This document shows, piece by piece, positions 4,376 through 59,477 of a DNA stretch of 64,000 nucleotides (position 1 is its first letter; each line of letters begins with the position of its first letter). The position numbers and the translations under genes were made by a program. Below the pieces are notes generated by a model. The model was not told where the DNA came from. It saw only the letters and a program-made list of their open reading frames with translations, and did no database searches. This DNA comes from a virus, in the IMG/VR virus record IMGVR_UViG_3300021085_002380; one strand, given 5' to 3'.

Positions 4376-4447
4376 TAACTATTGACATTTGGTTCTAAAT
4401 AGTGTAGATTGATTCTATAAGGTAAACAAAAAGGAATCAATCTTATG
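4376..4447 (+). promoter_or_regulatory. Early promoter + RBS cassette (repeat family, copy 1)
   Basis: TTAACTA-TTGACA-17-TAGATT-GATTCTATAAGGTAAACAAAAAGGAATCAATCTTATG; near-identical to 54195-54267 and 57725-57787. Confidence 0.85.
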
Positions 4448-4825
4448 AAATACGCAATCTACCAAATCCGTCTTACCGAAGCTCAAATTGATCTTATCAA
4501 TGAAACACAAAGCTTTGAGTCAGTTCCTGCTAAGAAAGCAAAAATTGATATGGACATGGATTTTGCAGGTCATAAGATCGGCGGTTTGGCATACGATGCT
4601 TTCGTAGAAAACAACTATTACACTCACGTTGCTAATATTGAAGCTGCTTCAGTAAATGAAGTATTTCATATCGGTAACATGGGACCTGAAGAAAACATTG
4701 AGCGTTTGACTCAAATGCATTCTATTTCAGTTGGCGATGTTCTCGTTGACGAAGAAGGTCAATGTATTGTAGTTGCGCCAATCGGCTTTGTTGCTTTTTC
4801 GCATGACTGGCGTCTTGCAGCCTAA
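4445..4825 (+). CDS. YodL-like domain protein
   Basis: YAIYQI...Y.HV...HSISVGDVLV pattern. Confidence 0.65.
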   Translation: MKYAIYQIRLTEAQIDLINETQSFESVPAKKAKIDMDMDFAGHKIGGLAYDAFVENNYYTHVANIEAASVNEVFHIGNMGPEENIERLTQMHSISVGDVLVDEEGQCIVVAPIGFVAFSHDWRLAA

Positions 4826-4923
4826 TAGGCAAATCCCAAAGCGATTACGCTGCCTAACTATTGCTGAGTCAGACTCGGATAAACAATGGGTGTCACAAAG
4901 GAGAGAAAACTTTCGGGTTTTAG

Positions 4924-4949
4924 AGAGGGACTTAGGTCCCTCTTTTTTT
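4924..4949 (+). terminator. Intrinsic terminator
   Basis: AGAGGGAC-TTAG-GTCCCTCT followed by T run. Confidence 0.85.
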
Positions 4950-4953
4950 GTAA

Positions 4954-4997
4954 CTTTTACAGTACTGTTACAAAACTATCATATTTCTGTAATAAAT
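4954..4997 (+). promoter_or_regulatory. Pho box array (PhoB-type 11-bp direct repeats)
   Basis: CTTTTACAGTA / CTGTTACAAAA / CTATCATATTT / CTGTAATAAAT at 4954, 4965, 4976, 4987 versus consensus CTGTCAT-A/T4. Confidence 0.7.
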
Positions 4998-5076
4998 ATT
5001 TAAGACAAGGTGGTAAAGACTTTGTCTTTTTTAACGCGAGCGACGGGGTAAAGCCGTCAAGCAAAAGGAGAACTAA

Positions 5077-6042
5077 ATGGAACTACTCACAATGTGGAGT
5101 CTTATCGGATTCCTGCTTGCTGCATACGCAGTTATAGCCAATGATTCAGTACAAACTCTCGGTACATGGATGGCGTCAAACAATGAGAGATTTAACTTTA
5201 AAGTATTATGGGCTGCGGCATCCGCGGTTTTGTTATATACACTTTGGTATGGTTGGTATATGAATGGCGGTGATATATCCTATGGCCGTTTGAATAAGAT
5301 CCCATTTCAAGATGTACAATGGTATCATGCGGCAGCACCTGCTATTCTTGTGGCATTAACACGAATGGGTGTACCGGTTTCAACATCATTCTTGGTGTTA
5401 TCGGTATTTGCTAGCACCTTTGTGTTAGAAAAGATGCTAATGAAATCCATTATGGGTTATGGTGTAGCCGCTGCGTTTGCTTATGCAGTATGGTTTGCTA
5501 TTCACAAATACTTTGGACAATGGTACGACGAAACAAAACCAGTATCTGAAAGTAATAAGAAGTTTTGGCGTATTGCCCAATGGGTAGCGACAGGTGGATT
5601 ATGGTTTACTTGGTTATCTCACGATATTGCTAACATTGCGGTATTCCTACCACGCGCCATTCCTGTAGATCTAATGGTCTTTATTAGCCTTGTGTTTGTC
5701 ACCGGTCTATTCTTTATGTTTAGAGAAAAAGGTGGTAAGATCCAAAAGATTGTTTTGGAAAAGCATAACACAAGATATGTAAGATCTGCAACATTGATTG
5801 ACTTATTCTATTGGTTATGTTTGTACTTCTTCAAAGAACTAAACGATATTCCAATGAGTACAACTTGGGTCTTTGTTGGGCTTCTAGCAGGTCGTGAATT
5901 AGCAATGGCTACATACTTTGGTAAAAAGAAAACCAAATCAGTATTCCCATTGGTGGCGAAAGACTTCGGCAAGATGATGGTTGGACTCGGCGCCTCAGTT
6001 GCATTGGTGTTGTTGATCCATTACGTTATCAACCCGGTGTGA
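5077..6042 (+). CDS. PiT/Pho4-like inorganic phosphate (anion) permease
   Basis: Multi-TM protein with duplicated PiT signatures IANDSVQT / SHDIANI and PVSTS / PMSTT. Confidence 0.7.
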   Translation: MELLTMWSLIGFLLAAYAVIANDSVQTLGTWMASNNERFNFKVLWAAASAVLLYTLWYGWYMNGGDISYGRLNKIPFQDVQWYHAAAPAILVALTRMGVPVSTSFLVLSVFASTFVLEKMLMKSIMGYGVAAAFAYAVWFAIHKYFGQWYDETKPVSESNKKFWRIAQWVATGGLWFTWLSHDIANIAVFLPRAIPVDLMVFISLVFVTGLFFMFREKGGKIQKIVLEKHNTRYVRSATLIDLFYWLCLYFFKELNDIPMSTTWVFVGLLAGRELAMATYFGKKKTKSVFPLVAKDFGKMMVGLGASVALVLLIHYVINPV

Positions 6043-7274: not shown

Positions 7275-7300
7275 AGAATACCTATAGAAAAAACTTGGTA

Positions 7301-7325
7301 GAGGGGCGGCGAAAGCTGCCCCTTT
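7301..7325 (+). terminator. Terminator-like hairpin
   Basis: AGGGGCGGC-GAAA-GCTGCCCCT plus short T run. Confidence 0.7.
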
Positions 7326-7341
7326 GGTCATTGAAAGAATG

Positions 7342-7349
7342 TATAAATA
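7342..7349 (+). promoter_or_regulatory. Late promoter upstream of heme oxygenase
   Basis: TATAAATA. Confidence 0.7.
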
Positions 7350-7384
7350 GATCTGATACACACCCTATACAAAAAGGTTTTATA

Positions 7385-7927
7385 ATGACCAATCGTTTGA
7401 AACAGTTGACATGGGATCACCATCAGTCGGCAGAACGTCGAGCTTTTGCTAGAAAACTATTACGCGGCGAACTTACCCCACACGAGTATTACATATTTCT
7501 TTGGTGCCAATGGCATAATTATACCCCTCTTGAAAACGCAGTTATCATTCCTCCGAATTTGTCTGCAATTTATAGAGCTGACCGTATTATGGCTGACATC
7601 CAAGAATTAGAAAAAGAACACGGCTTTGGTATGCCGTCTGCGTTACCACCTTCCGTTAAAGAGTATCAAGCTCATATTGGCGGTTTAGCAGAATCTGACG
7701 ATAACCAAGGTTTGCTTGCCCATATGTATACAAGGCACTTTGGCGAATTGCACGGTGGTCAAATCATTAAAAGAAAAGCACCTGGCTCTGGAACAATGTA
7801 CGAGTTTGAAGGTGATACAAAGATCCTTATTGAGGAGTTTAGAAAACTCTTAAATGACGATATGGCCCCAGAGGCTAAAAAATGTTTTGAATTTGCATCA
7901 AAACTTTTTGACGAATTGTCTACATAA
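7385..7927 (+). CDS. hemO: Heme oxygenase (biliverdin-producing)
   Basis: LKQLTWDHHQSAE (proximal His) and AHMYTRHFGELHGGQII distal helix; start at ATG 7385. Confidence 0.92.
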   Translation: MTNRLKQLTWDHHQSAERRAFARKLLRGELTPHEYYIFLWCQWHNYTPLENAVIIPPNLSAIYRADRIMADIQELEKEHGFGMPSALPPSVKEYQAHIGGLAESDDNQGLLAHMYTRHFGELHGGQIIKRKAPGSGTMYEFEGDTKILIEEFRKLLNDDMAPEAKKCFEFASKLFDELST

Positions 7928-7930
7928 TTG

Positions 7931-7959
7931 TTGACATTCTTATATTATTAAGTTATAAT
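7931..7959 (+). promoter_or_regulatory. Consensus sigma70 early promoter
   Basis: TTGACA-17-TATAAT. Confidence 0.85.
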
Positions 7960-8178: not shown

Positions 8179-8331
8179 ATGAAAACAATGGAAGTAAAAG
8201 AGGATCCCCAAACCGGGGACCTCTACCTAGACATACCTAAGGAAATGTTAGAAGAGCTCGATTGGAAAGAAGGCGATACGCTTGAATGGTCTGGTAACCA
8301 TGAAACTTGGTATGTTAGGAAGAAAGACTAA
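8179..8331 (+). CDS. AbrB/MazE-type DNA-binding protein (50 aa)
   Basis: GDLYLDIPKEMLEELDWKEGDTLEW. Confidence 0.75.
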   Translation: MKTMEVKEDPQTGDLYLDIPKEMLEELDWKEGDTLEWSGNHETWYVRKKD

Positions 8332-9011
8332 TGCATCCGCTATGGGATAGGCTTAACGATTACGCGGACTATATCGCTAAAAGCTTTGATGAGTATTTTA
8401 TTGAATACGATAACGAAGCTATGAATGGTCTGCAATTTAAAGATTGGACAGATCGCTTTTGGCGTTCTGATAATATCCAAAAGGCTCACCTCAAAACTAT
8501 TGTACCGAACGATGGTAAAGGTTTATGGCTAATGCACGTTAATGTATTTCCTAAAGTTGGAATTGAATTGCCTATTTTAGGATTTGATATTGTTGCGGGT
8601 CCAAAAAAGATTACCGGTTCGTTTATGGATTTTTCTCCATTATACGGGTTTCCGCATCCATATCATGACTATATGGAAAAAAGAGTTGCAAACTTAGAAT
8701 GGAATAAACCACGTGAATTGCCACCGTGGGCAAAGGAAATCTTTTCAAGTGATATGCTAGCGGTTGGTAATATTAATACTGATGAAGAGCTTAACCAATT
8801 TATTGAAGTAACCGCCGATTTAGTAGAGTATTATTTAATGAGTATGGAAACAAATCAATTTGAGTCCCATCGTGACACAAAGCCATTATTAAATAAGTAT
8901 TGCCAAAATCAAAAAATGAATCCACATTTACATCGCTCTATATTAGCTATGGGCATATCTGAAAAAGATAAAGATGAATATATCAACAACGTTTTATTTG
9001 AGGAAATCTAA
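8331..9011 (+). CDS. pcyX: Ferredoxin-dependent bilin reductase (PcyA/PcyX family)
   Basis: LMHVNVFP...LPILGFDIVAG...FMDFSP...RELPPWAKEIFS...YCQNQKMNPH; adjacent to hemO. Confidence 0.85.
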   Translation: MHPLWDRLNDYADYIAKSFDEYFIEYDNEAMNGLQFKDWTDRFWRSDNIQKAHLKTIVPNDGKGLWLMHVNVFPKVGIELPILGFDIVAGPKKITGSFMDFSPLYGFPHPYHDYMEKRVANLEWNKPRELPPWAKEIFSSDMLAVGNINTDEELNQFIEVTADLVEYYLMSMETNQFESHRDTKPLLNKYCQNQKMNPHLHRSILAMGISEKDKDEYINNVLFEEI

Positions 9012-10506: not shown

Positions 10507-10755
10507 ATGATAACACCACCAAGGTCACCAGAAAAAATTCACCATGAAATTGCTGCAATGTTGGCGAATGGAGTCAACTATATTGACGCACTCGTTGAAT
10601 ATGCTAGAAAGAACGATCTTGAAATCGAGGCAGTAGCAGATATTGTAAAAAAATCGTCTATCCTTAAAGAAAAACTTCGAGGAGAGGCAGTTAAACTCAA
10701 ACTAGTCGAAAAAGAAGAAAGAGATGATCAAGACATCACAGAGCTTTGCAAATGA
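10507..10755 (+). CDS. 33: Late transcription coactivator gp33
   Basis: NYIDALVEY...EIE...LKEKLRGEA; conserved 33-59-32 order. Confidence 0.8.
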   Translation: MITPPRSPEKIHHEIAAMLANGVNYIDALVEYARKNDLEIEAVADIVKKSSILKEKLRGEAVKLKLVEKEERDDQDITELCK

Positions 10756-11326
10756 GGAATCATTTAATCTCTATGTCAAGTATCTTGCACTAAAGAAACA
10801 CTTCACTACCGACGGCTACGATTATCATAAGTACAATGGAAAAATAAGAGCTAAGTTCGAGACATATCGTACTCGGAACGACGTATTCTTTTTCCATAAG
10901 CTTGCACAAAAAGACGATCCAATTAATCTTATGATGGCTAATATGTTAGTCAATCCAAATGTTTGGATCAGGACAATCGTAGAGCAGGAAGGTGAAAGCA
11001 AGTACTTTGACTGGAAGAAAAAGATTGATTCTTTAACGCACACTTTCAAATCAGATCTAAACAAATTAGATGATAACTATCAGTCTAACTTTGTCACGCA
11101 TGACGGTCAGCATCCACATGTTATGACCTTATATGTACAACGACAAATAACTCTCGAGACATTTACTATACTTACGCATTTATCAAATATTTTTCCTTAT
11201 TGGGAGCAAAAAATAGTTGACAAAATCGTCGCGCGTGATATAATTAGATTATCAAGAAAGTACAAACCATTCTTGGAAATTAATGAAAAAAAGTTCAAAG
11301 AAATTATCAGAGACAGGTTTTTCTGA
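10724..11326 (+). CDS. 59: Helicase loader gp59
   Basis: YLALKKHFT..YDYHKYNGK; synteny. Confidence 0.92.
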   Translation: MIKTSQSFANEESFNLYVKYLALKKHFTTDGYDYHKYNGKIRAKFETYRTRNDVFFFHKLAQKDDPINLMMANMLVNPNVWIRTIVEQEGESKYFDWKKKIDSLTHTFKSDLNKLDDNYQSNFVTHDGQHPHVMTLYVQRQITLETFTILTHLSNIFPYWEQKIVDKIVARDIIRLSRKYKPFLEINEKKFKEIIRDRFF

Positions 11327-11403: not shown

Positions 11404-12330
11404 ATGGCAACATCATTTGATGCACTTAAAAAGAATCGTTCAAGTTCACTAAACAAATTGAACGCACAGCTCGAAAAGATTTCAACTAAGAGCTATTCAG
11501 ATCCCAACGAAGGTAAAATGTGGAAACCACAACGTGACAAAGCTGGCAACGGTTTTGCAATTATTCGTTTCCTACCAGCGGCGCAAGGCGAAGAGATGCC
11601 TTTCGTACGTATTTGGGATCATGGTTTTCAAGGACCGACAGGTCTCTGGTATATTGAAAATTCACTCACAACCCTAAACCAAGACGATCCTGTGTCAGAA
11701 TTCAACGGCAAGTTGTGGAATTCTGGTATTGACTCAGACAAAGAACAGGCTCGTAAACAGAAACGTCGTCTAAAGTATGTAGCAAATATTATGGTGATTA
11801 AAGATAGCGCAAATCCTGAAAACGAAGGCAAAGTCTTTATGTATCAGTTTGGCAAAAAGATCTTTGATAAATTGAACGATATGATGAACCCATCGTTTGA
11901 GGATGAAACACCAGTCAATCCTTTTGACTTTTGGGAAGGCGCAAACTTCCGTTTGAAAATCCGTCAGTTTGAAGGATATCCAAACTACGACAAATCAGAG
12001 TTTGACCAACCGTCTGCAGTTTCAGAAGACGATGCTCAGATTGAAGCAATTTGGAACCAACAACATTCGCTACAAGAATTGGTTGACCCAAAGAACTTCA
12101 AATCATATTCTGAATTGAAAGCTAAACTGTATCGTGTTCTTGCGATTGGTGAAGAACCATCTGAGCCATCCACTGCAATGGATGTTGATGATGATTTGGA
12201 TTTGAGCAACATGGGTAACACTCAAGCTGCTGCTCCTACACCATCCGCTCCTGCTGCGGCTCCTGCAGCAACAATGAGTATGGATGATGACGACGATCTA
12301 TCAATCTTTAAGGAACTAGCGAATGGTTAA
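11404..12330 (+). CDS. 32: ssDNA-binding protein gp32
   Basis: GNGFAIIRFLP, WYIENS, PFDFWEGANF; acidic tail. Confidence 0.97.
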   Translation: MATSFDALKKNRSSSLNKLNAQLEKISTKSYSDPNEGKMWKPQRDKAGNGFAIIRFLPAAQGEEMPFVRIWDHGFQGPTGLWYIENSLTTLNQDDPVSEFNGKLWNSGIDSDKEQARKQKRRLKYVANIMVIKDSANPENEGKVFMYQFGKKIFDKLNDMMNPSFEDETPVNPFDFWEGANFRLKIRQFEGYPNYDKSEFDQPSAVSEDDAQIEAIWNQQHSLQELVDPKNFKSYSELKAKLYRVLAIGEEPSEPSTAMDVDDDLDLSNMGNTQAAAPTPSAPAAAPAATMSMDDDDDLSIFKELANG

Positions 12331-12649
12331 TAAAACCTACGAAGAGGTTTTAGATTTCGACTTTGGCTTCAGCTTCATTGATGAAGAGCTTCAAGAAAAA
12401 GAAGCTGTGGCCGAACAGAAAATTCAAGAAGTCAGTAGCGAAAAGCAATCACTTGAGGACCAACTCACTGATGCTAAAGTAGCTGCTGACGACTTTGAAT
12501 ATCGTTTAGAACTTCTATACAAATCAATCTCCCCATTCTTAGATAATTTGTGTAAGAATGCGGATAAGTCTACAATTTACTGGCCCGACAGAGTTGGTAA
12601 AATTGAGTCTTATAAAGCTAAACTATTGACGATCGTTGAGGGAAAATAA
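12323..12649 (+). CDS. Hypothetical coiled-coil protein
   Basis: FDFGFS...IYWPDR. Confidence 0.7.
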   Translation: MVNKTYEEVLDFDFGFSFIDEELQEKEAVAEQKIQEVSSEKQSLEDQLTDAKVAADDFEYRLELLYKSISPFLDNLCKNADKSTIYWPDRVGKIESYKAKLLTIVEGK

Positions 12650-12650
12650 T

Positions 12651-13727
12651 ATGAGTCTATTAGACAAACTAGTAAAAAATTCTACCATTAAGTTGACAGC
12701 TCAGTTATCTGAGTCAAAGGTTTTTGGTAAAAAAGAAATGGCACCAACACCAGTTCCTATGGTTAATGTTGCACTATCAGGTGATACTGATGGCGGCCTT
12801 AGCCCAGGATTGTTAGTTTTGGCTGGTCCATCTAAACACTTCAAATCTGCGTTTGCACTATTAACCGCAGCCGCATATATGAACAAATATAAAGATGCAA
12901 TTTTGCTCTTTTACGATTCAGAGTTTGGTACGCCTCAGGCATACTTCGAGTCATTTGGTATTGATATGGATCGCGTGGTTCATACTCCTATTACTAATGT
13001 TGAAGAACTCAAGTTTGATATTAGTAACCAACTAGACCAAATTGACAAAAAAGACCATGTTTGTATTATTATCGACTCAGTCGGTAACTTGGCTTCCAAG
13101 AAAGAAGTTGAGGACGCAATGAATGAAAAATCTGTTGCGGATATGTCTCGGGCTAAATCTTTAAAGTCTTTGTTCCGTATTGTAACACCACACCTTAATC
13201 TTAAAGACATTCCTTTGATTGCGGTTAACCATACCTATCAAGAAATCGGATTGTTTCCTAAGGCTATTGTTTCAGGCGGTACAGGCATCTATTATTCAGC
13301 TGATGCTATTTGGATTGTTGGACGCCAGCAAGATAAAGTTGGTACTGAAATCCAAGGCTACCATTTTGTTATTAATATTGAAAAGTCACGCCATGTTAAA
13401 GAAAAATCTAAAATTCCAATCAGTGTAAGTTGGGATGGCGGTATCGTTAAATGGTCTGGTTTGATGGATGTAGCTGAAAAAGGTGGATATCTTCGTAAAC
13501 CAAAAGTTGGTTGGTATGAAGCAGTTGATCCGTCAACCGGTGAAGTTATTTCGCAAAAGTTAATGCGTGCTAAAGAAGTTAACGATAACGGCGAATTTTG
13601 GAATATGATGTTTGAAACTACAGACTTCAAAGATTATGTACGGAATACATTTACAATTGGAGCTTCAGGCAGTATTATGCGTGAAGATGACGATAGCGTA
13701 TTTGAAGAAGAAGTTATTGAAGGCTAA
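12651..13727 (+). CDS. uvsX: RecA-like recombinase UvsX
   Basis: AGPSKHFKS Walker A, YDSEFG, IDSVGNL; start at ATG 12651. Confidence 0.96.
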   Translation: MSLLDKLVKNSTIKLTAQLSESKVFGKKEMAPTPVPMVNVALSGDTDGGLSPGLLVLAGPSKHFKSAFALLTAAAYMNKYKDAILLFYDSEFGTPQAYFESFGIDMDRVVHTPITNVEELKFDISNQLDQIDKKDHVCIIIDSVGNLASKKEVEDAMNEKSVADMSRAKSLKSLFRIVTPHLNLKDIPLIAVNHTYQEIGLFPKAIVSGGTGIYYSADAIWIVGRQQDKVGTEIQGYHFVINIEKSRHVKEKSKIPISVSWDGGIVKWSGLMDVAEKGGYLRKPKVGWYEAVDPSTGEVISQKLMRAKEVNDNGEFWNMMFETTDFKDYVRNTFTIGASGSIMREDDDSVFEEEVIEG

Positions 13728-13827: not shown

Positions 13828-15249
13828 ATGATTGAAAAAACAGTATTAGCAAACTTGATATTTAACGAAGACTATTTTCGTAAAGTGTATCCTTATATCA
13901 AACAAGAATACTTTGACGATAATGGTCTTAAAAAAATATTTGATACATATTCTGGATATGTTGATGAATACAAATCTCCGCCTTCAATTGAGGCGTTAAA
14001 GATTTCTTTAGACAAACGTAAAGACCTCAACGAAGATGCCTATAAAGGTATTATGTCTGAGGTTGACAATATGGCAGTTGACCAAAATACAGACTTTGAT
14101 TGGCTCGTAAAAGAAACTGAAAAATTTTGCCAAGATAAAGATCTATATAATTCTATTCGTAAAGCAATTCTTGTAATTGACGGCGAAGACAAAGAAATGG
14201 ATAAAGGTTCATTACCAGAACTATTATCTAACTCTTTATCAATTAGTTTTGACACAAGTATCGGCCACGATTACCTTGAGGATTATGAAAGCCGTTATGA
14301 CTTTTATCATAAGAAAGAAGAACGTATTCCATTCGATATTGAATTACTCAACAAGATTACAAAAGGTGGTCTGCCACGCAAATCTATGACTGTATTACTC
14401 GCAACAACTGGTGGTGGTAAATCATTGGTCAAATGTCACCATGCTGCATCGGCATTAATGATGGGTAAGAACGTTTTATATATTACAATGGAAATGGCTG
14501 AAGAACGTATCTCTGAACGTATTGATGCTAATATGATGGATGTTACTATTGATGAAGTGGCCGAAACACCCCGTGATGTTTTCGCAAAACGAATTGGTAG
14601 ATTTACATCAAAAACAACTGGTAAGTTAGTTGTTAAAGAATACCCAACTGGCTCTGCCCATGTTGGCCACTTTAGGCATTTGCTTAACGAATTGAAAATG
14701 AAACGCAACTTTGCGCCTGATATTATTTTTATTGACTATTTGAATATTTGTGCGTCTGCAAGAGTAAAAGGCGCTGCGGCAGCTAACTCATATACTCTTG
14801 TAAAATCAATCGCTGAGGAGGTACGTGGTCTTGCGATGGAATATAATTGTGCTGTGGTTACTAGTTCTCAGTTTAATCGTGATGGTTACGGCAACTCTGA
14901 CGTGGATCTCACTAATACTTCTGAAAGTATGGGAATTACCCATACTGCTGACTGCATTCTTGGTCTAATCACATCTGAAGATTTGGATCAGCTTGGTCAA
15001 TTAATGATTAAACAATTGAAAAACAGATGGAACGATCTTAGTTATTATCGTAGGTTCGTGGTTGGTGTTGATAGATCAAAAATGAAACTTTATGATTTGG
15101 AAAGTAGTGCTCAGAATGGTATATCAAACGACCAACCTGCGGCAAATACTGCGTTCCAAAAACCGTCCTTAACAGATACGCCAATATTTGACAACACTCA
15201 ATTTGGTAAAAAGAAAAAAGGTTTATTTGACACAGGAGATCTGATGTGA
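13828..15249 (+). CDS. 41: Replicative helicase gp41
   Basis: TTGGGKS, ITMEMAEE, IDYLNI, SESMG, KQLKNR. Confidence 0.96.
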   Translation: MIEKTVLANLIFNEDYFRKVYPYIKQEYFDDNGLKKIFDTYSGYVDEYKSPPSIEALKISLDKRKDLNEDAYKGIMSEVDNMAVDQNTDFDWLVKETEKFCQDKDLYNSIRKAILVIDGEDKEMDKGSLPELLSNSLSISFDTSIGHDYLEDYESRYDFYHKKEERIPFDIELLNKITKGGLPRKSMTVLLATTGGGKSLVKCHHAASALMMGKNVLYITMEMAEERISERIDANMMDVTIDEVAETPRDVFAKRIGRFTSKTTGKLVVKEYPTGSAHVGHFRHLLNELKMKRNFAPDIIFIDYLNICASARVKGAAAANSYTLVKSIAEEVRGLAMEYNCAVVTSSQFNRDGYGNSDVDLTNTSESMGITHTADCILGLITSEDLDQLGQLMIKQLKNRWNDLSYYRRFVVGVDRSKMKLYDLESSAQNGISNDQPAANTAFQKPSLTDTPIFDNTQFGKKKKGLFDTGDLM

Positions 15250-33568: not shown

Positions 33569-33587
33569 TTGGACTACATTATTTGGT
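33532..33587 (+). repeat. 28-bp tandem duplication
   Basis: GGAAATTAATTGG(C/A)CTACATTATTTGGT x2, one mismatch. Confidence 0.9.
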
Positions 33588-33615
33588 TGACATTTGGGCC
33601 TGATCCAATTATAAT
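33587..33615 (+). promoter_or_regulatory. Consensus sigma70 early promoter for primase
   Basis: TTGACA-17-TATAAT. Confidence 0.85.
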
Positions 33616-33649
33616 CTAATATATACAGAATCAGATTGAGCTTTTTATT

Positions 33650-36783: not shown

Positions 36784-36795
36784 TAAGGAAAAAAC

Positions 36796-38454
36796 ATGAA
36801 AGATTTTTATTGGTTAAACGAGGACTCTCGTACATTTTTGTCGCGCGGCTATCTTAGCGAAGGTGAAACCCCTGAAAGCCGTATCCGTGATATTGCAAAC
36901 AAAGCAGAAGAATATTTAAACGAGCCAGGATTTGCGGACAAGTTTTATGAGTATATGGCTCGTGGCTTTTATTCGTTAGCATCTCCTGTTTGGGCTAATT
37001 ACGGTAAAGAACGAGGTTTACCTGTATCTTGCTTTGGTTCATACATTGATGATAGCATGCAAGCTATCTTGTTTGGTCATGCTGAAAACGGTATGCTAAT
37101 GAAAAACGGTGGTGGTACGTCAGGTTACTTTGGTAATATCCGTCATCGTGGCGCTCCTATTCGAGACTCAGGCGAGTCCTCAGGCTCAGTACACTTTATG
37201 CAAATGTATGATACACTTGCGTCTGTTGTATCACAAGGTTCTGTTCGCCGCGGTTTCTTTGCTGCATATCAAGACATTGAACATCCTGATGCTGATGAGT
37301 TTTTGGACATTGGTACAGAAGGCAATCCTATTCAAGGTCTAACAACTGGTATTACTGTTAGTGATAAATTCATTGAAGAAATGAAAGCAGGGGATCCTGA
37401 AAAGCGCCGCTTGTGGGCAAAGGTTCTACAACGTCGTTCTGAAGTTGGGTTTCCTTATATCCTATATTCCGATAATGTAAATAACGGAAGACCGCAAGTC
37501 TATAAAGACAAAGATATGAGAGTTTATGCTTCAAACATGTGTGCTGAAATTGCGTTACCATCCAGCCACGAAGAAACATTTACATGTGTACTTTCTTCTA
37601 TTAACGTATTGCATTGGGATCAAATTAAAGATACTGACGCGATTGAAACAATGACAAAATTCCTTGATACTGTTTGTGAAGAATTTATTATTAAAACAGA
37701 AGGCCAAATCTATTTAAAACGAGCGCGTGACTTTGCTATGAACCACCGCGCCCTTGGTGTTGGTATTCTTGGATGGCATTCGTTACTTCAATCAAAAATG
37801 ATGGCCTTTGAAGGTTCAGCTGCGTCAAAATTGAATTTAGAAATTGCACAAACATTACGTGAAAGATCCCACGCGGCGTCTGCTGAGTTAGCAAAAACTT
37901 TAGGCGAGCCACCTTTACTAAAAGGTTATGGAATGCGTAATACTACAACGATGGCAATTGCTCCTACTAAATCATCGAGCTTTATTCTTGGGCAAGTATC
38001 ACAATCAATTGAGCCTGAGTTCAGCAACTGTTATGTTAAAGATCTGGCCAAAATGAAAGTTACAATCAAAAATCCATATCTACAAAAACTCCTTGAAGAT
38101 AAAGGTGCAGATACCGTAGAAACGTGGGATAGTATTAAAGCAAGAGATGGATCTGTGCAACACCTTGTAGAATTGCTGGATGAAAATGAACGAGCCGTAT
38201 TCAAAACGTTTTCAGAAATTAATCCAAACGCAATTATTGACCAAGCCGCAATTCGTCAAGAATACATTGACCAATCGCAAAGTCTAAACCTAATGTTAGA
38301 TCCTGATATGTCAGTTAAAGAAATCAATCAAATGTATCTATATGCGTGGGAAATGGGTGTAAAGAGTTTGTACTACAGTTATTCAATGTCTGCAGCGCAA
38401 TCACTTACTCGAAAGCGTGTAATGTTAGAAGGTTGTGCAGCCTGCGAAGCTTAA
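36796..38454 (+). CDS. nrdA: Ribonucleotide reductase alpha subunit (no ATP-cone)
   Basis: [23 protein letters not shown]-terminal CAAC. Confidence 0.95.
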
Positions 38455-43668: not shown

Positions 43669-43697
43669 TTGACATACTCAATAGAATCAGTTATATT
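43669..43697 (+). promoter_or_regulatory. Early promoter with GAATC in the spacer
   Basis: TTGACA-17-TATATT; AGAATCAG. Confidence 0.75.
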
Positions 43698-43727
43698 AGT
43701 AACTATAAATATAAATTGAGGCACACA

Positions 43728-44255
43728 ATGAAACTGAAACAAATTATCGCAGCAACAGTATCCGCAGCTTTGACAGGAACAGTAGTTATAGGATCTCTTA
43801 CACTACCTGTAATTGCGGCCGAACAAGAAAGACTATGGTCAGAACAAGAAGCTAACTGCTTGGCTTTAAACATATACTATGAATCACGTGGCAGCAACCT
43901 TGCGGATAAAGCTGGAGTTGCAGATGTAGTTTTAAATAGAAAGTACGATACACGTTATCCTAACACAATATGCGAAGTTGTCCAGCAAGGCATTAAAAAT
44001 GCAGACGGTTCAATGAAGCGTAATATGTGCCAGTTTAGCTGGTACTGCGACGGAAAATCTGATAACCCACAAGATCAGGATCGTTGGAATGAAGCTCAAA
44101 TGATTGCGTCACAATTACTTGAGTGGGGAAAATACCGTGGCATTACCGAAGGAGCCACTCATTATCATGCAACTTATGTAAGTCCGCGTTGGGCTAAAGA
44201 CCTTCAGCAGGTTGGCCGTCTTGGTGCTCATATCTTTTATCGTTGGGATCAGTAA
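43728..44255 (+). CDS. SleB-like cell wall hydrolase (Hydrolase_2)
   Basis: CLALNIYYESRG, VVLNR, CQFSWYCDG, HYHA, HIFY. Confidence 0.92.
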   Translation: MKLKQIIAATVSAALTGTVVIGSLTLPVIAAEQERLWSEQEANCLALNIYYESRGSNLADKAGVADVVLNRKYDTRYPNTICEVVQQGIKNADGSMKRNMCQFSWYCDGKSDNPQDQDRWNEAQMIASQLLEWGKYRGITEGATHYHATYVSPRWAKDLQQVGRLGAHIFYRWDQ

Positions 44256-48399: not shown

Positions 48400-48641
48400 T
48401 AATATACGGTAAAAGCGCTTGCGGCTTCTGTTTACGTGCTAAGAAGCTCGCCGAACGGCATGGCCTAGAATATGAATATAAGAGTGTTGACTTCGACCAA
48501 TACAGAACAGAAATGTATGATTTAAAACCTGATGCTGAAACAGTTCCACAAATTTGGTGGAATGATAAGTATCTTGGTGGATACAACGAGTTTGCGATGG
48601 AAATTGAAAACACTCGTAATTTTGGTCAAGACGCATTTTAA
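48393..48641 (+). CDS. nrdC: Glutaredoxin
   Basis: CGFC, TVPQI, GGY. Confidence 0.88.
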   Translation: MVIIYGKSACGFCLRAKKLAERHGLEYEYKSVDFDQYRTEMYDLKPDAETVPQIWWNDKYLGGYNEFAMEIENTRNFGQDAF

Positions 48642-48704
48642 CTATTGACATTTTCTTTCAACTATGGTAGATTGATTCTATCAAATGAAAAGGAATACAT
48701 TATG
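48638..48704 (+). promoter_or_regulatory. Early promoter cassette (repeat family)
   Basis: TTAACTA-TTGACA-17-TAGATT-GATTCTA...AAAAGGAAT. Confidence 0.8.
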
Positions 48705-48944
48705 ACATACACAGTTGAACTTGATATCTCCCACGAAGCAACACATGAAGAAGTTGTTCAATTTGCAACTGAACATGGTTGCCGCGTAATGATGAGGATT
48801 GAAGAAGGTCCTGCAGGAGGAAATCCTCTTTACACATTTGCATCTGAAACTTTTGATATGCTCCAAGAATTGACCGAACAAGTACTTGGCTCAGGCCGCG
48901 GGCTTGATGAGGAACAAATTAAAACTATGATCGTGGAGGTATAA
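48702..48944 (+). CDS. Hypothetical early protein
   Basis: GPAGGNP motif; start at 48702. Confidence 0.65.
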   Translation: MTYTVELDISHEATHEEVVQFATEHGCRVMMRIEEGPAGGNPLYTFASETFDMLQELTEQVLGSGRGLDEEQIKTMIVEV

Positions 48945-49481: not shown

Positions 49482-49916
49482 ATGTGGCATTACAAAGGTG
49501 AGGAGTTTACCTCAGAGATGATTGGTGATTATATTGGCTTTGTTTATATAATCACAGATAACTCTAACGATAAAAAATATATCGGTAAAAAGATTTTCAA
49601 ATCAAAAAGAAGACTTAAACCTTTGAAGGGCAAGACCCGCCGAAGAACTAAGATAGTAGAGTCTGATTGGCAAAAGTACTATGGCTCGTCAGAAGAAGTC
49701 AAACTTATGGTAGAAGAAAAAGGCCCTGATAACTTTTACCGAGAAATTATACACCTTTGCGATAAGAAAGGTGAAATGGGCTATCTCGAACTTTACGAAC
49801 AAATTACTCGTCACGCATTGCTAGACGATTCATACTACAACGGCATATGCCAAGCTAAAATCCATAGAAGTCATGTTAAAGGATTAAAATGGCTCATGGA
49901 CGATAGTAATGGTTGA
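49482..49916 (+). CDS. GIY-YIG nuclease
   Basis: GFVY...KKYIG...E...YYN; late promoter at 49450. Confidence 0.8.
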   Translation: MWHYKGEEFTSEMIGDYIGFVYIITDNSNDKKYIGKKIFKSKRRLKPLKGKTRRRTKIVESDWQKYYGSSEEVKLMVEEKGPDNFYREIIHLCDKKGEMGYLELYEQITRHALLDDSYYNGICQAKIHRSHVKGLKWLMDDSNG

Positions 49917-49969
49917 CATTTCTATTAAAATAGATTATATTAATCTAGAATCAGTTAATGGAGAATGTT

Positions 49970-50200
49970 ATGATTATCAAAAGAAAAAGCGCCTTTTCAG
50001 GAATCGTTCGCTCAAAGGATATCCCTGTTGATCCTAAAGACTTCGCTCAGTTTGAAGCTGGGTATGGAAGTATGGAAGACTTACTCCCTTATTTGTCAGA
50101 CGAAGATCGTGAATTCATTCTTTCAGGTATGACTCCTCAAGAATGGAAAAACGCGTTCTCTGAAGAAATTATGAATATCGTTGAGGACCAATTTGCATGA
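49970..50200 (+). CDS. Hypothetical protein
   Basis: PYLSDEDREFILSG; early promoter 49913-49941. Confidence 0.65.
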   Translation: MIIKRKSAFSGIVRSKDIPVDPKDFAQFEAGYGSMEDLLPYLSDEDREFILSGMTPQEWKNAFSEEIMNIVEDQFA

Positions 50201-52697: not shown

Positions 52698-53558
52698 ATG
52701 GCAATTCTAGTAGATTACAACCAAGTTATCCTTGCTTCGCTATTCGCAAGCATCGGTAACCATCATAATGTGGACATTGACGAAAATCTTATCCGTCATA
52801 TGTTCCTAAATTCAATCCGGTCTAACCGTAAAAAGTTTACCGAACAATATGGAGAAATCGTAATATGTGCTGATGGCAAAAATACATGGCGTCGTGAGCT
52901 ATATCCTTATTACAAAGCTAATCGTAAAAAGTCTCGTGATGAGTCTGAACTTGATTGGACTCAGCTATTTGGTATTATGAATACCATCCGAGATGAGCTT
53001 AAGGAATTCTTTCCATACAAAGTTATTCATATGGACCATCTTGAGGCTGATGATATCATTGGTACCATCATCCATGAAAACGGTGCTATCTTAAACGGCG
53101 GTGCAGAACCTTTCTTGGTTCTATCCGGTGATAAAGATTACATCCAATTACATACGTATGCTAATGTGGATCAGTTTGACCCAGTTCGTAAACGTTGGAT
53201 CCGTAATGACAATCCTGACCAATATTTGGTTGAGCACGTCTTAAAAGGTGACACTGGTGATGGTGTTCCGAATATTCTTTCACCAGACAATTGTTTAGCT
53301 GTTGGCCAACGCCAAAAACCTATGACCAAAAAACGCCTTGAGCAATTCCGCAATGGCACGGATGGTATGGATGAAGAAACATTACGACGCTATCACCGTA
53401 ATAAAACCATGATTGATTTGTCTCAAATTCCGGCAAATTACCAAACAGCAATTCTTGAAGAGTACAGCATTGACAAAGAAGTTGGTCGTTCAGAACTCTT
53501 TAACTTTTTTGTTAATCGCAAACTCAAAAACCTAATTTCAGACATACAGGATTTTTAA
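52698..53558 (+). CDS. rnh: T4-type RNase H / 5'-3' exonuclease
   Basis: YKANR, EADD, SGDKD, GDTGDGVPN. Confidence 0.95.
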   Translation: MAILVDYNQVILASLFASIGNHHNVDIDENLIRHMFLNSIRSNRKKFTEQYGEIVICADGKNTWRRELYPYYKANRKKSRDESELDWTQLFGIMNTIRDELKEFFPYKVIHMDHLEADDIIGTIIHENGAILNGGAEPFLVLSGDKDYIQLHTYANVDQFDPVRKRWIRNDNPDQYLVEHVLKGDTGDGVPNILSPDNCLAVGQRQKPMTKKRLEQFRNGTDGMDEETLRRYHRNKTMIDLSQIPANYQTAILEEYSIDKEVGRSELFNFFVNRKLKNLISDIQDF

Positions 53559-54194: not shown

Positions 54195-54267
54195 TTAACT
54201 ATTGACATTTGAGTACAAATAGGTTATATTGATTCTATAAGGTAAAACAAAAGGAATCAATCTTATG
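54195..54267 (+). promoter_or_regulatory. Early promoter + RBS cassette (repeat family)
   Basis: Near-identical to 4376-4447. Confidence 0.85.
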
Positions 54268-54657
54268 GGTACTTCATCAATGATCGCAAACTACAACGAA
54301 GACGGCACAGTTACAGCAACATATTGCCATTACGATGGTTATCTTGCTTACAACGGCCGTCTTCTTTTTGAAGCCTATAACACACCTGAGAAGGCTAAAG
54401 CAGTAGCAAATGCTGGTTATATCTCAGGTCTGAAAGAAGACCTACAAACATCTTTAGATGAGTCGGTCCATTCAAACCAATCCCCTGTTACATACAATTC
54501 AGTTGAAGACTTCCTGGCAAACGGCCGTGAGTTTGCTTGTGCTGATTATCTTTACCTGTTTGACGGAGACGCATGGTTCTATGCTTCAACGCCTGCCCAG
54601 GAAGGTACATGGTTAATGGAAGAAGTTGAAATGAATTTAAATGAGGTAGCTGCATAA
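54265..54657 (+). CDS. Hypothetical early protein
   Basis: YCHYDGY...G..L...Y.YLF. Confidence 0.7.
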   Translation: MGTSSMIANYNEDGTVTATYCHYDGYLAYNGRLLFEAYNTPEKAKAVANAGYISGLKEDLQTSLDESVHSNQSPVTYNSVEDFLANGREFACADYLYLFDGDAWFYASTPAQEGTWLMEEVEMNLNEVAA

Positions 54658-54718
54658 TAACTATTGACATTTGCTCGCGAATCAGATAGATTGTATATAT
54701 CAACAAAGGAAAATGAAA

Positions 54719-54991
54719 ATGAAAAAGTTAAACCAAACAACACTGAAAACAATCCGCAACGCTGACAAGGATACACTTGACGCAATTATCGCGGAAGTCA
54801 AAAACCGTCAACGCCAAATGCAGCGTGAAATCGGAAATGCGTTCAACGTCGGAGATAAAGTTTGGTTTGACGCAAATCGTCGTGGTCGCATTGAAGGTAT
54901 GATTTCAAAAATCAACCAAAAGACTATCGTCGTTAAAACACCTACCGTAACTTGGAAAGTTACACCATCACTATTAAAGAAAGTAGCCTAA
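54719..54991 (+). CDS. Hypothetical SH3-like early protein
   Basis: Behind promoter 54664-54692; VGDKV.F...G...KINQK. Confidence 0.65.
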   Translation: MKKLNQTTLKTIRNADKDTLDAIIAEVKNRQRQMQREIGNAFNVGDKVWFDANRRGRIEGMISKINQKTIVVKTPTVTWKVTPSLLKKVA

Positions 54992-55945: not shown

Positions 55946-56695
55946 ATGGCTAGACAGCGAAGACTATCCAGGAAAGAACGACGTAGACAAGAACGAGAAG
56001 AGGAAAACATGATGCGTGTTTTAAACACCAAGTTTTCAATGCGGGCAGTTAAACCGCTAACACCATCTCAATCTGATTTATTTAATTCTTACGAAAGAGG
56101 GTATAATCTCGCAGCCATAGGAACAGCAGGTACAGGAAAAACAATGTGTGCTACATACTTGGCACTCAATGATGTACTACAGAAAGGAGAGTATGAAAAG
56201 GTCGTCATAATTAGATCTGCAGTTCAAACACGCGAGCAAGGCTTTATGCCTGGGTCAAAGGCCCAAAAGGAGGCGGTATTCGAAGGTCCGTATACCGACA
56301 TCGTTAACGATCTATTTAGCAGAGGAGATGCTTATCAAGTTTTAAAACAAAAAGGTATGATTGAATTTATGAGTTCATCGTTTGTAAGAGGACTCACGTT
56401 TGATAATTCAGTCATTATAGTAGACGAATGTCAATCTATGACGTACCATGAACTTGATACTATTATCACACGTGTAGGAGAGTCCTCAAAGATTATCTTC
56501 TGCGGTGATACAAAGCAAGACGATCTTCAACAATCTCGAAACAGAGCAGATATCTCAGGTCTTTACGATTTTGTAAAGGTTCTAAATGCTATCCCATCTT
56601 TTGGTGTGGTAAGATTTGGAGTTGAAGATATTGTTCGTTCAGGATTAGTTAAAGAATATATAATTGCAAAAGAAAAACTTTTAGAGGCTGCATAA
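55946..56695 (+). CDS. phoH: PhoH-family ATPase
   Basis: GTAGTGKT, GFMPG, RGLTF, DECQ, GD..Q.D, DIVRS. Confidence 0.95.
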   Translation: MARQRRLSRKERRRQEREEENMMRVLNTKFSMRAVKPLTPSQSDLFNSYERGYNLAAIGTAGTGKTMCATYLALNDVLQKGEYEKVVIIRSAVQTREQGFMPGSKAQKEAVFEGPYTDIVNDLFSRGDAYQVLKQKGMIEFMSSSFVRGLTFDNSVIIVDECQSMTYHELDTIITRVGESSKIIFCGDTKQDDLQQSRNRADISGLYDFVKVLNAIPSFGVVRFGVEDIVRSGLVKEYIIAKEKLLEAA

Positions 56696-57048
56696 TGGCG
56701 TTAGCTGCACGCGGAGACACAATAGAAACAGTAGATACAGTTCATCCAGCATCAGGAGATGCGGTGGCAAACGATGGATCTAATTGTGACGTAAATTCAA
56801 TAAACACTTCAACAGACGCGTGTAGCGGAAAAGTTTTTGCACAAGGTATCGGCGTTGTCAGATTTGGCGATGCCGTTACCAATCATATACAAGGCGGTGT
56901 TTGTACTAATCATGCAATCGCGCCTACTCTTAACACAGGTTCATCTAAGGTGAAAATTGAAGGAAAGAAAGCAGGGCGCAAAGGTGATACATATTCTTGC
57001 TCTGCTGAAATCAAAACAGGAGCGCCTAAAGTAGATATAGGCGGCTAA
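56695..57048 (+). CDS. PAAR-like spike tip protein
   Basis: AARGD, GSSKVKIEGKKAGRKGD, C/H ligands. Confidence 0.75.
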   Translation: MALAARGDTIETVDTVHPASGDAVANDGSNCDVNSINTSTDACSGKVFAQGIGVVRFGDAVTNHIQGGVCTNHAIAPTLNTGSSKVKIEGKKAGRKGDTYSCSAEIKTGAPKVDIGG

Positions 57049-57056: not shown

Positions 57057-57728
57057 ATGTTTAATCATGTAGAGCACGGCGTGGTGCTTCCCAAATTAAC
57101 ACGTGAAACAACTACAACTGGTAGAAAATACTTTACACCAGAAGGAAACGCATATCCGTCAATCACAACGGTTCTTGGCGTATTAAATAAAGAAGGAATT
57201 CTTGCGTGGCGTCAAAGAGTTGGCGAAGCGGAAGCAAATAGAATATCACAGCAAGCCGCCACTCGTGGTACGGCGGTACACAAACTTGCAGAAGATTATT
57301 TAGATAATAAAGAGGATTGGAACAAAGGTGCAATGCCTTCAAATCTCCAATCCTTTAATGATTTAAAATCTATACTTGACCAACGTTTAAACAATGTTTG
57401 GTTTCAAGAAGAGTTCTTATACTCTGATAGACTAAAATGCGCAGGACAGGTTGACTGCATCGCTGAGTTTGACGGTCAACTTTCTATTGTTGATTTTAAA
57501 ACATCAAGGAAACCAAAGAAAGAGGAATGGATTACTAATTACTTTATTCAAGCATCTTTTTACGCCGCTGCATTTTATGAAAGAACCTCCATACCAATTA
57601 AACAAGGCGTGATCTTGATAACCGTAGACGGTTCAGAACCACAAGTCTTTAAAGTTAACACTTACGATTATTTAGAACATTTTATTGCAGTACGAAAAAA
57701 GTACAAAGAAATGAAAGAACGCCATTGA
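57057..57728 (+). CDS. PD-(D/E)XK exonuclease
   Basis: YPSITTVL, RGTAVH, AGQVD, VDFKTS, Q...Y. Confidence 0.88.
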   Translation: MFNHVEHGVVLPKLTRETTTTGRKYFTPEGNAYPSITTVLGVLNKEGILAWRQRVGEAEANRISQQAATRGTAVHKLAEDYLDNKEDWNKGAMPSNLQSFNDLKSILDQRLNNVWFQEEFLYSDRLKCAGQVDCIAEFDGQLSIVDFKTSRKPKKEEWITNYFIQASFYAAAFYERTSIPIKQGVILITVDGSEPQVFKVNTYDYLEHFIAVRKKYKEMKERH

Positions 57729-57787
57729 CATTCATTATGAAATGGTTTATATTGATTCTATAAGGTAAAACAAAAGGAATCAAAATG
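57725..57787 (+). promoter_or_regulatory. Early promoter + RBS cassette (repeat family)
   Basis: TTGACA-17-TATATT-GATTCTATAAGGTAAAACAAAAGGAATCAA. Confidence 0.85.
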
Positions 57788-58084
57788 ACAAAGTTCAACA
57801 AAACAGACTTCAGCTACCACGGTGGATATCTTATGTACACAGGTTCGTATGAAGGCCAACCAGTATATGAAGACAGTGAAAGAGTTCACCCTTCAAATGT
57901 TGGTCGTGGCATTGACCTTTTCATTGCTCGGTTCAAGTACCGTGGAAGTCCTATCAAAATGGGAGCTTTCAAAAAGTTCCTTATCAACAACTTCACCGTT
58001 GAAGAATATGCTGCAGCTCGTAAGGTTGAAGGAATTGAAAGTTCACCTCTTAAAATCTTAGAATCGAAAGGATTTGCTGTATGA
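57785..58084 (+). CDS. Hypothetical early protein
   Basis: Behind cassette promoter. Confidence 0.65.
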   Translation: MTKFNKTDFSYHGGYLMYTGSYEGQPVYEDSERVHPSNVGRGIDLFIARFKYRGSPIKMGAFKKFLINNFTVEEYAAARKVEGIESSPLKILESKGFAV

Positions 58085-58650
58085 ATATATTTGTATTATC
58101 AGAAGAGCCGCGAGAAGCGGCTCAGATGGTCTGCGACAAACACTGTAGTAAAATGATTATTGAGTCTGGACAAATGCTGTCCACTGCACATCGTATGCTT
58201 GACGGATATATGGAAAAGCGTCCTTCAAAGTCAGGTAAGGTCATGGTTAAGTACTTTGTCCATCCTAATAATAATCTTGAAGAAACGCTTTACAAAGCAG
58301 TACATCACGGACATCCATGCACAGTATGGTCTATGAAATCAAAGGCCAATTATCTATGGCATTATGAGCACTTTCTCGGGCTTATAGATGAGTTTCTGGT
58401 ACGCTACAAAAAGCTTCATATGACTGCAAACAAGTTGACTGAAGTTCTTGCTAATCCGCCGGAAAATATACCAGACATAGGTCTAACCGAATTTCCACAA
58501 GCAATGAATAACTTTCCGTTATGCAAGGTTGAAGGCAATCCAGTTGCAGCATATCGTAAATATTATCATATGACTAAAGACTTTGCTGTATGGAATAAAG
58601 GGCGTTCTGCTCCTGATTGGTGGCAAGGTTTTCAAGGATATCCAGCTTGA
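58081..58650 (+). CDS. Pyrimidine-dimer DNA glycosylase (DenV-like)
   Basis: MNIF, DKH..KMIIES.QMLSTAH, HPCT.W. Confidence 0.8.
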   Translation: MNIFVLSEEPREAAQMVCDKHCSKMIIESGQMLSTAHRMLDGYMEKRPSKSGKVMVKYFVHPNNNLEETLYKAVHHGHPCTVWSMKSKANYLWHYEHFLGLIDEFLVRYKKLHMTANKLTEVLANPPENIPDIGLTEFPQAMNNFPLCKVEGNPVAAYRKYYHMTKDFAVWNKGRSAPDWWQGFQGYPA

Positions 58651-58979
58651 GATACATAATAATTGACCAAGAGATGGGTGTGTTTCTCGGCACTCATCGA
58701 ATGCCACTTCAAGGAGCTGGCGGTCCTATAAACATTATGAGAATATTTTCAAAAAACGATATGTTTGGTATCAGCAGAGCATATTCTTTTGATACTAAAA
58801 AAGATGCGTTTAAATATATGCAAGCATTCTTAATAGAGGACTATCCTCTTTGTAAAATTGTGGAAGTAGAATCAAGTGGTCAATATGTTGATGTTATAGA
58901 TTTAATTAAGTCAGGATACACTCAATACACACATGACATGGTTGACGCGTTGCCGATGGACAACGAAACTATCCACTAA
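58647..58979 (+). CDS. Hypothetical protein
   Basis: Probable TTG start overlapping the upstream stop. Confidence 0.55.
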   Translation: MRYIIIDQEMGVFLGTHRMPLQGAGGPINIMRIFSKNDMFGISRAYSFDTKKDAFKYMQAFLIEDYPLCKIVEVESSGQYVDVIDLIKSGYTQYTHDMVDALPMDNETIH

Positions 58980-59066
58980 TTTTTTTCAATTTAATTTCAT
59001 TTTATTGTTGACATTTCGTTTAGAATCAGTTATATTATTAATATAACAAATGAAAAGGAATCAGTC

Positions 59067-59414
59067 ATGACAAGTCAAACTCAACTTTTTTGGAAAGAAA
59101 CACCACTTGCAAACGTAGCTGCGTTAGTTGCGAAATTTCGTGGTTATGCACAAGATGAAGAAGCAATTGAAAACGACATGGCTGATATGTATAACGAAGA
59201 CGCTGACGATTTTCACAAAGCAATCGTTTTGTTTCGTCAGTCAGATTGCGAAGGTTTAGCTGAACATATTAATCGTATGGATACATCTCCTCGTGAAGAC
59301 TTGGTTGAAGCTTTTTGGTTTGACTGCGGCAATGAATTCGTTGAAAAAAACCTTGGGTTTGAAATGAGTCAATCTTGGATTGATTTTCAAAATGAATTAA
59401 AAGTTGCAGTTTAA
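59067..59414 (+). CDS. Hypothetical early protein
   Basis: Behind promoter 59008-59036. Confidence 0.65.
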   Translation: MTSQTQLFWKETPLANVAALVAKFRGYAQDEEAIENDMADMYNEDADDFHKAIVLFRQSDCEGLAEHINRMDTSPREDLVEAFWFDCGNEFVEKNLGFEMSQSWIDFQNELKVAV

Positions 59415-59477
59415 CTATTGACATTATGATGGAATCAGTATATACTAGTTATATACAAAATGAAAAGGAAATAACAA

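Follow-up and report, generated by a model that had tools for sequence, protein, structure and literature searches.

Most early sigma70-type promoters of IMG/VR virus record IMGVR_UViG_3300021085_002380, a stretch of 64,000 nucleotides (hereafter the window, meaning this whole stretch), carry a short conserved element that contains GANTC in the sequence context preferred by GcrA, a methylation-linked cell-cycle factor. The element is 7 bp long and is present in either orientation (AGAATCA, which is TGATTCT on the opposite strand). Its enrichment in promoters is real, positional and common to a whole phage group, and it is coupled to a genome-wide avoidance of the same word; for these reasons, something more than cassette duplication alone is required to explain it. 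The presence of the GcrA word at fixed places in most early promoters, together with its avoidance elsewhere, suggests that the phage may borrow a cell-cycle factor of the host to begin its infection. The best single explanation, which we put forward tentatively, is that host GcrA would dock on the promoter element through its DNA-binding domain. GcrA as the reader, the methylation of the sites and an effect on transcription are components of this proposal that we infer from comparisons of sequences. The window itself belongs to the genome of a marine T4-like myovirus of about 220 kb, has a G+C content of 38% and has almost all of its genes on the + strand.

GANTC sites in the early promoters of the window

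The promoter set comprises 16 strong promoters, all intergenic, that follow the pattern TTGACA(t)-N17-TAtAtT and have sigma70-type −35 and −10 boxes. The transcription start was taken as 7 nt past the −10 box, and all site centres given here depend on that assumption. GANTC is present between −35 and +40 in 10 of these 16 promoters (P 7e-6), with 14 sites in the 16 promoter regions versus 3.07 expected. It ranks fifth among the 136 patterns of the type XYNZW in promoter regions, the four patterns above it being parts of the −35 and −10 hexamers, and it is therefore the most enriched pattern of this type outside the core hexamers. The collapse of duplicated cassettes had been set beforehand as the test that could refute positional enrichment; the enrichment persists after it, with GANTC in 6 of 11 promoter families (P 0.0015), and a chance origin of the promoter sites is ruled out. 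The claim of the sequence-only reading that GANTC is enriched in promoters therefore stands, with two corrections: the sites are almost all GAWTC, with a central A or T (all but one in the window), and GANTC is depleted in the window as a whole (149 sites versus about 182–217 expected), which rules out a global enrichment.

The sites are centred at −18/−19 in the spacer between the −35 and −10 boxes (four promoters), at −4 directly past the −10 box (four promoters), at +2 and +8 (two promoters) and at +17/+19 in the ribosome-binding site (RBS; four promoters). All the positions first listed for them hold: TGATTCT starts at 4410, 48673, 54230 and 57753, directly past the −10 box; GAATCAG is found in the spacer of four other promoters (43684, 54679, 59023 and 59432) and further downstream, past the −10 box, in two more (33628 and 49948); and a second GAATC follows the RBS at 4434, 54254, 57777 and 59058. 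As had also been claimed, most promoter sites match the GcrA consensus YGAKTCK, and 9 of the 10 site-bearing promoters have at least one site that fits it. The RBS copies (AAGGAATC) read GGAATCA; they look incidental, since they amount to AAGGAAT with a C after it and fail to match YGAKTCK.

The accessory early genes are preceded by repeated near-consensus sigma70 cassettes of the form TTAACTA-TTGACATT ... TATATT. One 74-nt cassette, family A, is common to four promoters (4382, 48645, 54202 and 57725), two further promoters share 34 nt, and the stretches shared among the other promoters measure 34–52 nt. In three copies of family A (4409–4440, 54229–54260 and 57752–57783), the two GANTC sites constitute a perfect inverted repeat of 7 bp, TTGATTC-N18/19-GAATCAA, that runs from the end of the −10 box to the RBS; this repeat is broken in the 48645 copy.

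The upstream part of the cassette had been described as similar to a CtrA half-site, which would raise the possibility that the promoters are tied to this second regulator. TTAACTA does precede the −35 box at 48638, 54195 and 59411, and the first copy starts at 4375 rather than at 4376, a slip of one base; TTAAC stands ahead of the −35 box in four promoters. This TTAAC belongs to the fixed cassette TTAACTATTGACA and lies at the place expected for a proximal UP element. The full box TTAA-N7-TTAAC is absent from the window (0 versus 2.1 expected), which rules it out, and a second TTAA, where present upstream, is 10 or 13 nt away. A connection with CtrA is thus extremely improbable and can be considered as essentially excluded.

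T4-type late promoters (TATAAATA) are present ahead of gp23 and other late genes. Because these separate promoters serve the late genes, the sigma70-type promoters, located ahead of early and accessory genes, correspond to the T4-type early class, as the sequence-only reading had assumed. The promoters with GANTC precede small accessory genes, a cell-wall hydrolase gene and a gene encoding a DUF932 protein. Six promoters lack GANTC (311, 6081, 7931, 13736, 32944 and 52632); three of these six precede recognisable replication genes (DNA polymerase, gp41 helicase and RNase H). The positions of the individual promoters and of the marker genes are given in Table 1.

Table 1. Positions of GANTC-bearing early promoters, a GANTC-free promoter and marker genes in the window (ORF, open reading frame).
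Feature	Position	Strand	Details
Sigma70 promoter without GANTC	311–339	+	Ahead of the DNA polymerase gene
gp43 DNA polymerase	369–2906		
Early promoter, family A copy 1	4375–4444	+	TTAACTA; −35 4382–4387; −10 4405–4410; TGATTCT 4410–4416, centre −4; RBS GAATC 4434; drives ORF 4445–4825
gp59	10724–11326		
gp32	11404–12330		
UvsX	12636–13727		
gp41	13828–15249		
Early promoter, TTGACA-N17-TATAAT	33587–33649	+	AGAATCA 33627–33633, centre about +8; drives ORF 33650–34654
Ribonucleotide reductase	35500–38454		
Early promoter	43669–43715	+	TAGAATCAGT in spacer, GAATC 43684–43688, centre −18; drives cell-wall hydrolase gene 43716–44255
Early promoter, family A copy 2	48638–48710	+	TGATTCT 48673–48679, centre −4; RBS reads GGAATAC, hence no second site
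Early promoter	49913–49957	+	AGAATCA 49947–49953, centre about +2; drives ORF 49958–50200; at end of SegE-like GIY-YIG gene
RNase H	52698–53558		
Early promoter, family A copy 3	54195–54264	+	TGATTCT 54230–54236; RBS GAATC 54254; drives ORF 54265–54657
Early promoter	54657–54720	+	CGAATCAGA in spacer, GAATC 54679–54683, centre −18; opposite strand TGATTCG, the best Caulobacter GcrA word
Early promoter, family A copy 4	57725–57784	+	TGATTCT 57753–57759; RBS GAATC 57777; drives ORF 57785–58084
Early promoter	59008–59066	+	TAGAATCAGT in spacer, GAATC 59023–59027, centre −18; RBS GAATC 59058; drives ORF 59067–59414
Early promoter, TTAACTA cassette	59411–59477	+	GGAATCAGT in spacer, GAATC 59432–59436, centre −19, flank does not fit YGAKTCK; drives DUF932 gene 59478–60434
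GapR-like nucleoid protein	61728–62066	+	PF10073, E 1e-31; end of early block
gp23 and scaffold protein	3′ end of window	−	

Two of these promoters show additional features. At 43669–43715, the early promoter and a late TATAAATA box (43704) both precede the cell-wall hydrolase gene, which suggests that this gene is expressed early as well as late. Upstream of the promoter at 33587, a 28-nt repeat in two tandem copies (96% identical; 33532–33587, + strand) ends exactly at the −35 box.

Conservation of the promoter element in related phages

The nearest record to the window, G001, is a 23-kb fragment identical to it. The closest complete relative is the 221-kb IMG/VR contig G002, whose DNA polymerase is 89% identical, followed by the complete relatives G003 and G006 (about 71–79% identical). 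Cultured relatives are distant: the DNA polymerase is 44% identical to that of cyanophage S-RIM8 and gp32 is 55–57% identical to the proteins of S-H38, Melnitz and HTVC008M. Megablast of two stretches of the window against cultured phages gave no match, and BLAST of a 51-nt promoter returned chance matches only.

In G002, 19 of 26 promoters carry the site. An IMG/VR scan for the exact pattern TTGACA-N9-GAATCAG-N-TANNNT detected at least 118 stretches, many with two to four copies, and the promoter word is present in more than 100 IMG/VR contigs of one phage group: of the 209 loci fetched, 165 have two or more proteins in common with G002, and 167 of the 183 motif promoters are found in them. 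A second IMG/VR scan was anchored on TTAACTATTGACATT and the −10 box only and was thus blind to the motif. In the related loci that it recovered, 69 of 146 promoters carry the site (11% of random windows do), with peaks at −18 (26 sites) and at −4/−3 (33 sites) versus 1.7 per position if the sites were evenly spread. Many of these promoters again have TAGAATCAGT in the spacer; in others, AGAATCA stands directly past the −10 box (TATATT AGAATCAAC...), or the reverse GATTCTA is found there. Enrichment and fixed positions thus appear in three independent sets, and the GANTC element is a property of the phage group, not of a single genome. A negative association between spacer sites and −10-proximal sites, as would be seen if they were mutual substitutes, was looked for and not found.

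In these relatives, YGAKTCK is matched by 65 of 96 promoter sites, compared with 36% of all GANTC in G002. Variants such as CGAATCAGT (CGAATCA) read TGATTCG on the opposite strand, which is the top Caulobacter word.

Avoidance of GAWTC outside promoters

Synonymous-codon shuffling revealed 51 GAWTC in the coding DNA of the window versus 114 expected. GAATC (z −5.7) and GATTC (z −6.0) are the eighth and ninth most depleted of the 1024 pentamers. GAGTC is enriched in the same analysis, as expected if GAA-TCn codon pairs were swapped for GAG-TCn. A Markov model places GAWTC first among depleted pentamers in G002 (observed/expected ratio, O/E, 0.64) and within the three most depleted ones in the window (O/E 0.59). 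A similar bias is present in Rhodobacterales genomes: no pentamer is more depleted than GAWTC in a 200-kb sample of the low-GC genome HTCC2255 (O/E 0.55), and it is near the top of the depleted pentamers in an Amylibacter genome (O/E 0.34). Among control phages, it is not depleted in cyanophage S-RIM8 (O/E 1.02), its ratio is 0.80 in the OM43 phage Melnitz, and all four GANTC words are avoided fivefold (O/E 0.20) in the first 50 kb of the SAR11 phage HTVC008M. Moreover, the density of GANTC is about twice as high in intergenic as in coding DNA in the phage and 1.5–1.9 times as high in two candidate host genomes; a higher intergenic than coding density has been reported for CcrM-bearing Alphaproteobacteria (Gonzalez et al., 2014).

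Avoidance of a GAWTC-specific restriction enzyme could also account for the depletion, but it would leave the retention of GAWTC in promoters unexplained, and the avoidance of 4-mer palindromes by the phage is mild compared with S-RIM8, Melnitz and HTVC008M. This much milder palindrome avoidance would also fit modified DNA. Individual words are rare in the coding DNA of the window, with 61 TCGA versus 155 expected by codon shuffling (z −10) and no ATCGAT versus 18, and CATG and CCGG are low too. The first 50 kb of HTVC008M display a restriction-type signature much stronger than that of the window phage (O/E of 0.03 for CACTG/CAGTG, 0.15 for GATGC and 0.0 for TCGA).

GANTC could also have no function of its own and hitch-hike in promoter cassettes that are spread and homogenised by recombination, like the PeSL cassettes of T4-type phages (Arbiol, 2010, PMC2839356; Comeau, 2014, PMC4122927). 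The latter indeed resemble the promoters described here in being repeated, near-perfect TTGACA-N17-TATAAT promoters located ahead of small variable genes in hyperplastic regions, from which the phage promoters differ by the extra conserved GANTC word. The cassettes shared within family A and among the other promoters fit such a scenario, as do a cassette consensus that reaches well past the site and RBS copies that do not fit YGAKTCK. However, the enrichment remains after family collapse, and the word recurs within different cassettes, at different positions and in both orientations, in genomes with only 71–89% identity between their DNA polymerases. Neutral retention in promoters would furthermore be unexpected, because the genome elsewhere avoids GAWTC about twofold. 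A search for terminator-like hairpins upstream of promoters between 42.5 and 62.4 kb found none; the upstream stem-loops of PeSL are thus lacking and membership in the canonical PeSL group is rejected. We regard hitch-hiking without function as unlikely.

The probable host

The early block of the window ends with the gene encoding the GapR-like nucleoid protein, a phage copy of a host chromosome-structuring protein. Among 14 control genomes, PF10073 is detected in Caulobacter only. In species-representative genomes, 72 relatives of this protein were found, nearly all of them alphaproteobacterial and the best ones in Rhodobacterales (74% identity in Cognatishimia, about 60% in Amylibacter and HTCC2255). 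The gapR gene is also present in G002 and G006. The five Rhodobacterales genomes with the closest GapR each encode GcrA and one CcrM-sized PF01555 methylase. The G+C content of HTCC2255 (36.6%) is near that of the phage, and the pentamer bias profile of G002 is best correlated with that of HTCC2255, if weakly (r 0.25, versus 0.01–0.15 for the others). The gapR gene, which is the principal clue, and a GAWTC avoidance like that of the candidate hosts point to an alphaproteobacterial host, probably a low-GC member of the Rhodobacterales, in agreement with the host group originally supposed.

Candidate readers of the promoter element

The preferred methylated site of GcrA is TGATTCG, and more broadly YGAKTCK (Haakonsen et al., 2015, PMC4647560). 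GcrA boxes are mostly located at −20 ± 1 or −30 ± 2 in the spacer, or between +5 and +30 (Wu et al., 2023, PMC9976885). GcrA is a monomer whose DNA-binding domain is carried on a flexible linker, and the scaffold of the cryo-EM upstream complex has GAATC at −22 to −18 (PMC9976885). There is also a precedent for a phage element under its control, a GcrA-dependent prophage operon in Brevundimonas subvibrioides (PMC7987155).

The early promoter element of the phage consists of GANTC with flanks of the kind preferred by GcrA. The DNA-binding domain of GcrA would dock either at the −18/−19 spacer site or at the −4/−3 site beside the −10 box, and, because GcrA rides on sigma70-RNA polymerase, the phage early promoters could preferentially capture the GcrA-loaded holoenzyme. 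Adenine methylation, if needed, would be provided by host CcrM. The orientation of the spacer GAATC is that of the cryo-EM scaffold, with a gap to the −10 box of 3 bp in the window (4 bp in G006) versus 5 bp in the scaffold; this 3-bp gap, with the start taken 7 nt past the −10 box, places the centre at −18/−19. A reader on a tether would explain better than a core-promoter contact why one word is used at several positions and in either orientation.

Several observations weigh against GcrA as the reader. The spacer centre at −18, though close, lies 1 bp outside the published −20 ± 1, and the −4/−3 position has no counterpart among published GcrA positions. The conserved word measures 8–10 bp (TAGAATCAGT), which is longer than GcrA needs; 94 of the 96 sites of the relatives have A or T at the centre, and the phage shows no depletion of GAGTC and GACTC. 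Promoters of the motif-free sample keep AAT at −19 to −17 (70–94%) and G at −14 (66%) even without GANTC, with C at −16 in only 30% of promoters; since AAT and G are kept with or without the full GAATC, part of the word may be a general spacer or cassette consensus. YGAKTCK contexts represent 13% in host coding DNA versus 36% in the phage, and the layout TTG-N12-GAATC-N3-TANNNT was searched for in five candidate host genomes and not found in them. On the side of methylation, a six-frame profile search of G002, G003 and G006 detected no PF07750 (GcrA), PF01555 or PF02086. A search for PF05063 (MT-A70) in the same genomes gave no match either, a result that is uninformative because the control genomes also lack a match. 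As these complete relatives have no GcrA or adenine methylase match, methylation would have to come from the host CcrM; this enzyme is cell-cycle restricted in Caulobacter, and the phage would depend on it. The relatives carry a divergent ThyA-like gene, and the phage DNA may contain a hypermodified cytosine that could hinder CcrM or GcrA; GANTC holds a cytosine on both strands, where the modification would fall.

The same length and fixed A/T centre of the word, its positions and the persistence of AAT and G in GANTC-free promoters would be accounted for by a reader other than GcrA, such as an early phage protein (an activator, for instance, or a repressor that turns these promoters off), a different host factor, or RNA polymerase contacting the spacer or discriminator directly. 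The near confinement of the motif to one phage group and the extended −10 TG that often replaces it in GANTC-free promoters point in the same direction. On the other hand, neither a core-promoter contact nor a dimeric repressor would usually use a single word at three places and in both orientations, no candidate for such a reader was found, and the exact fit to the GcrA 7-mer and the host-like genome-wide avoidance would be a coincidence. Such a reader, or a direct polymerase contact, ranks second after GcrA and before hitch-hiking, but is doubtful in our opinion. The suggestion that a GcrA or CcrM homologue encoded by the phage outside the window reads or writes the sites did not survive: although other alphaproteobacterial phages encode GcrA (phiCbK), the search of the three complete relatives described above rules it out in close relatives, and neither protein is among the strong Pfam matches of window ORFs of at least 100 aa. 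It is highly improbable and, like the connection with CtrA, essentially excluded.

Should GcrA be the reader, one could go a step further and imagine that an entire clade of T4-like phages, abundant in the sea and infecting roseobacter-type hosts, has built the GcrA word into its immediate-early promoters. Infection would then start efficiently only in GcrA-loaded cells, i.e., replicating cells in S-phase, and the methylation of incoming or new phage DNA would act as a timing switch. We consider this scenario as rather speculative and not very likely; if true, a lytic phage would read an epigenetic cell-cycle signal of its host.

Comparison with known GcrA systems and implications

The phage promoters resemble GcrA promoters of Caulobacter crescentus (PMC4647560, PMC9976885) in several respects: a sigma70 promoter with single or double GANTC in a YGAKTCK context, a box in the −35/−10 spacer near −20 or near the start, and GANTC that are rare in coding DNA and commoner between genes. 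They differ in belonging to the early regulon of a lytic phage rather than to cell-cycle genes, in the centres of the boxes (−18/−19 and −4/−3 in the phage, where the starts are assumed, versus −20/−30 or +5 to +30 in Caulobacter), in the A/T centre of the site, in core hexamers that are close to the Escherichia coli consensus and in DNA whose cytosine is possibly hypermodified. The GcrA homologue of phiCbK and the GcrA-dependent prophage operon of Brevundimonas subvibrioides (PMC7987155) likewise associate phage elements with the alphaproteobacterial GcrA circuit; unlike phiCbK, the phage described here would supply cis sites only, since its complete relatives have no gcrA gene. These two cases are the nearest precedents, and a full-text literature search retrieved no account of promoters of this kind in phages.

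With GcrA as the reader, the phage would be the first lytic one to connect its early regulon with the CcrM/GcrA circuit by means of cis sites alone, and the connection would provide a mechanism for a host-cell-cycle dependence of infection in abundant marine bacteria. The combination of GcrA boxes in early promoters and GANTC avoidance would then be a simple marker to assign uncultured phages to alphaproteobacterial hosts. Even with another reader, an extra promoter element conserved in more than 100 marine phage contigs represents a defined target for transcription studies.

Other features of the window and its relatives

Besides the genes listed in Table 1, the window contains a heme oxygenase gene and a ferredoxin-dependent bilin reductase gene (a PcyX/PcyA-like pair; 7295–7927 and 8331–9011, + strand), and this phage probably infects something other than a cyanobacterium; the consensus early promoter at 7931 is located between the two genes. 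A gene encoding a SegE-like GIY-YIG homing endonuclease (49482–49916, + strand) stands behind a late TATAAATA box at 49450, and its 3′ end overlaps the early promoter at 49913. The early accessory genes include those encoding a PAAR-motif protein (56695–57048) and the DUF932 protein (59478–60434). An acidic tract rich in Asp and Glu is encoded by a run of 9-nt repeats (32146–32226, + strand). Finally, in the relative G003, the DNA polymerase gene (G003:C1:170402-173930) matches as two pieces, the first of which contains stops; this gene may thus be a split or interrupted one, or a mobile element may have invaded it.

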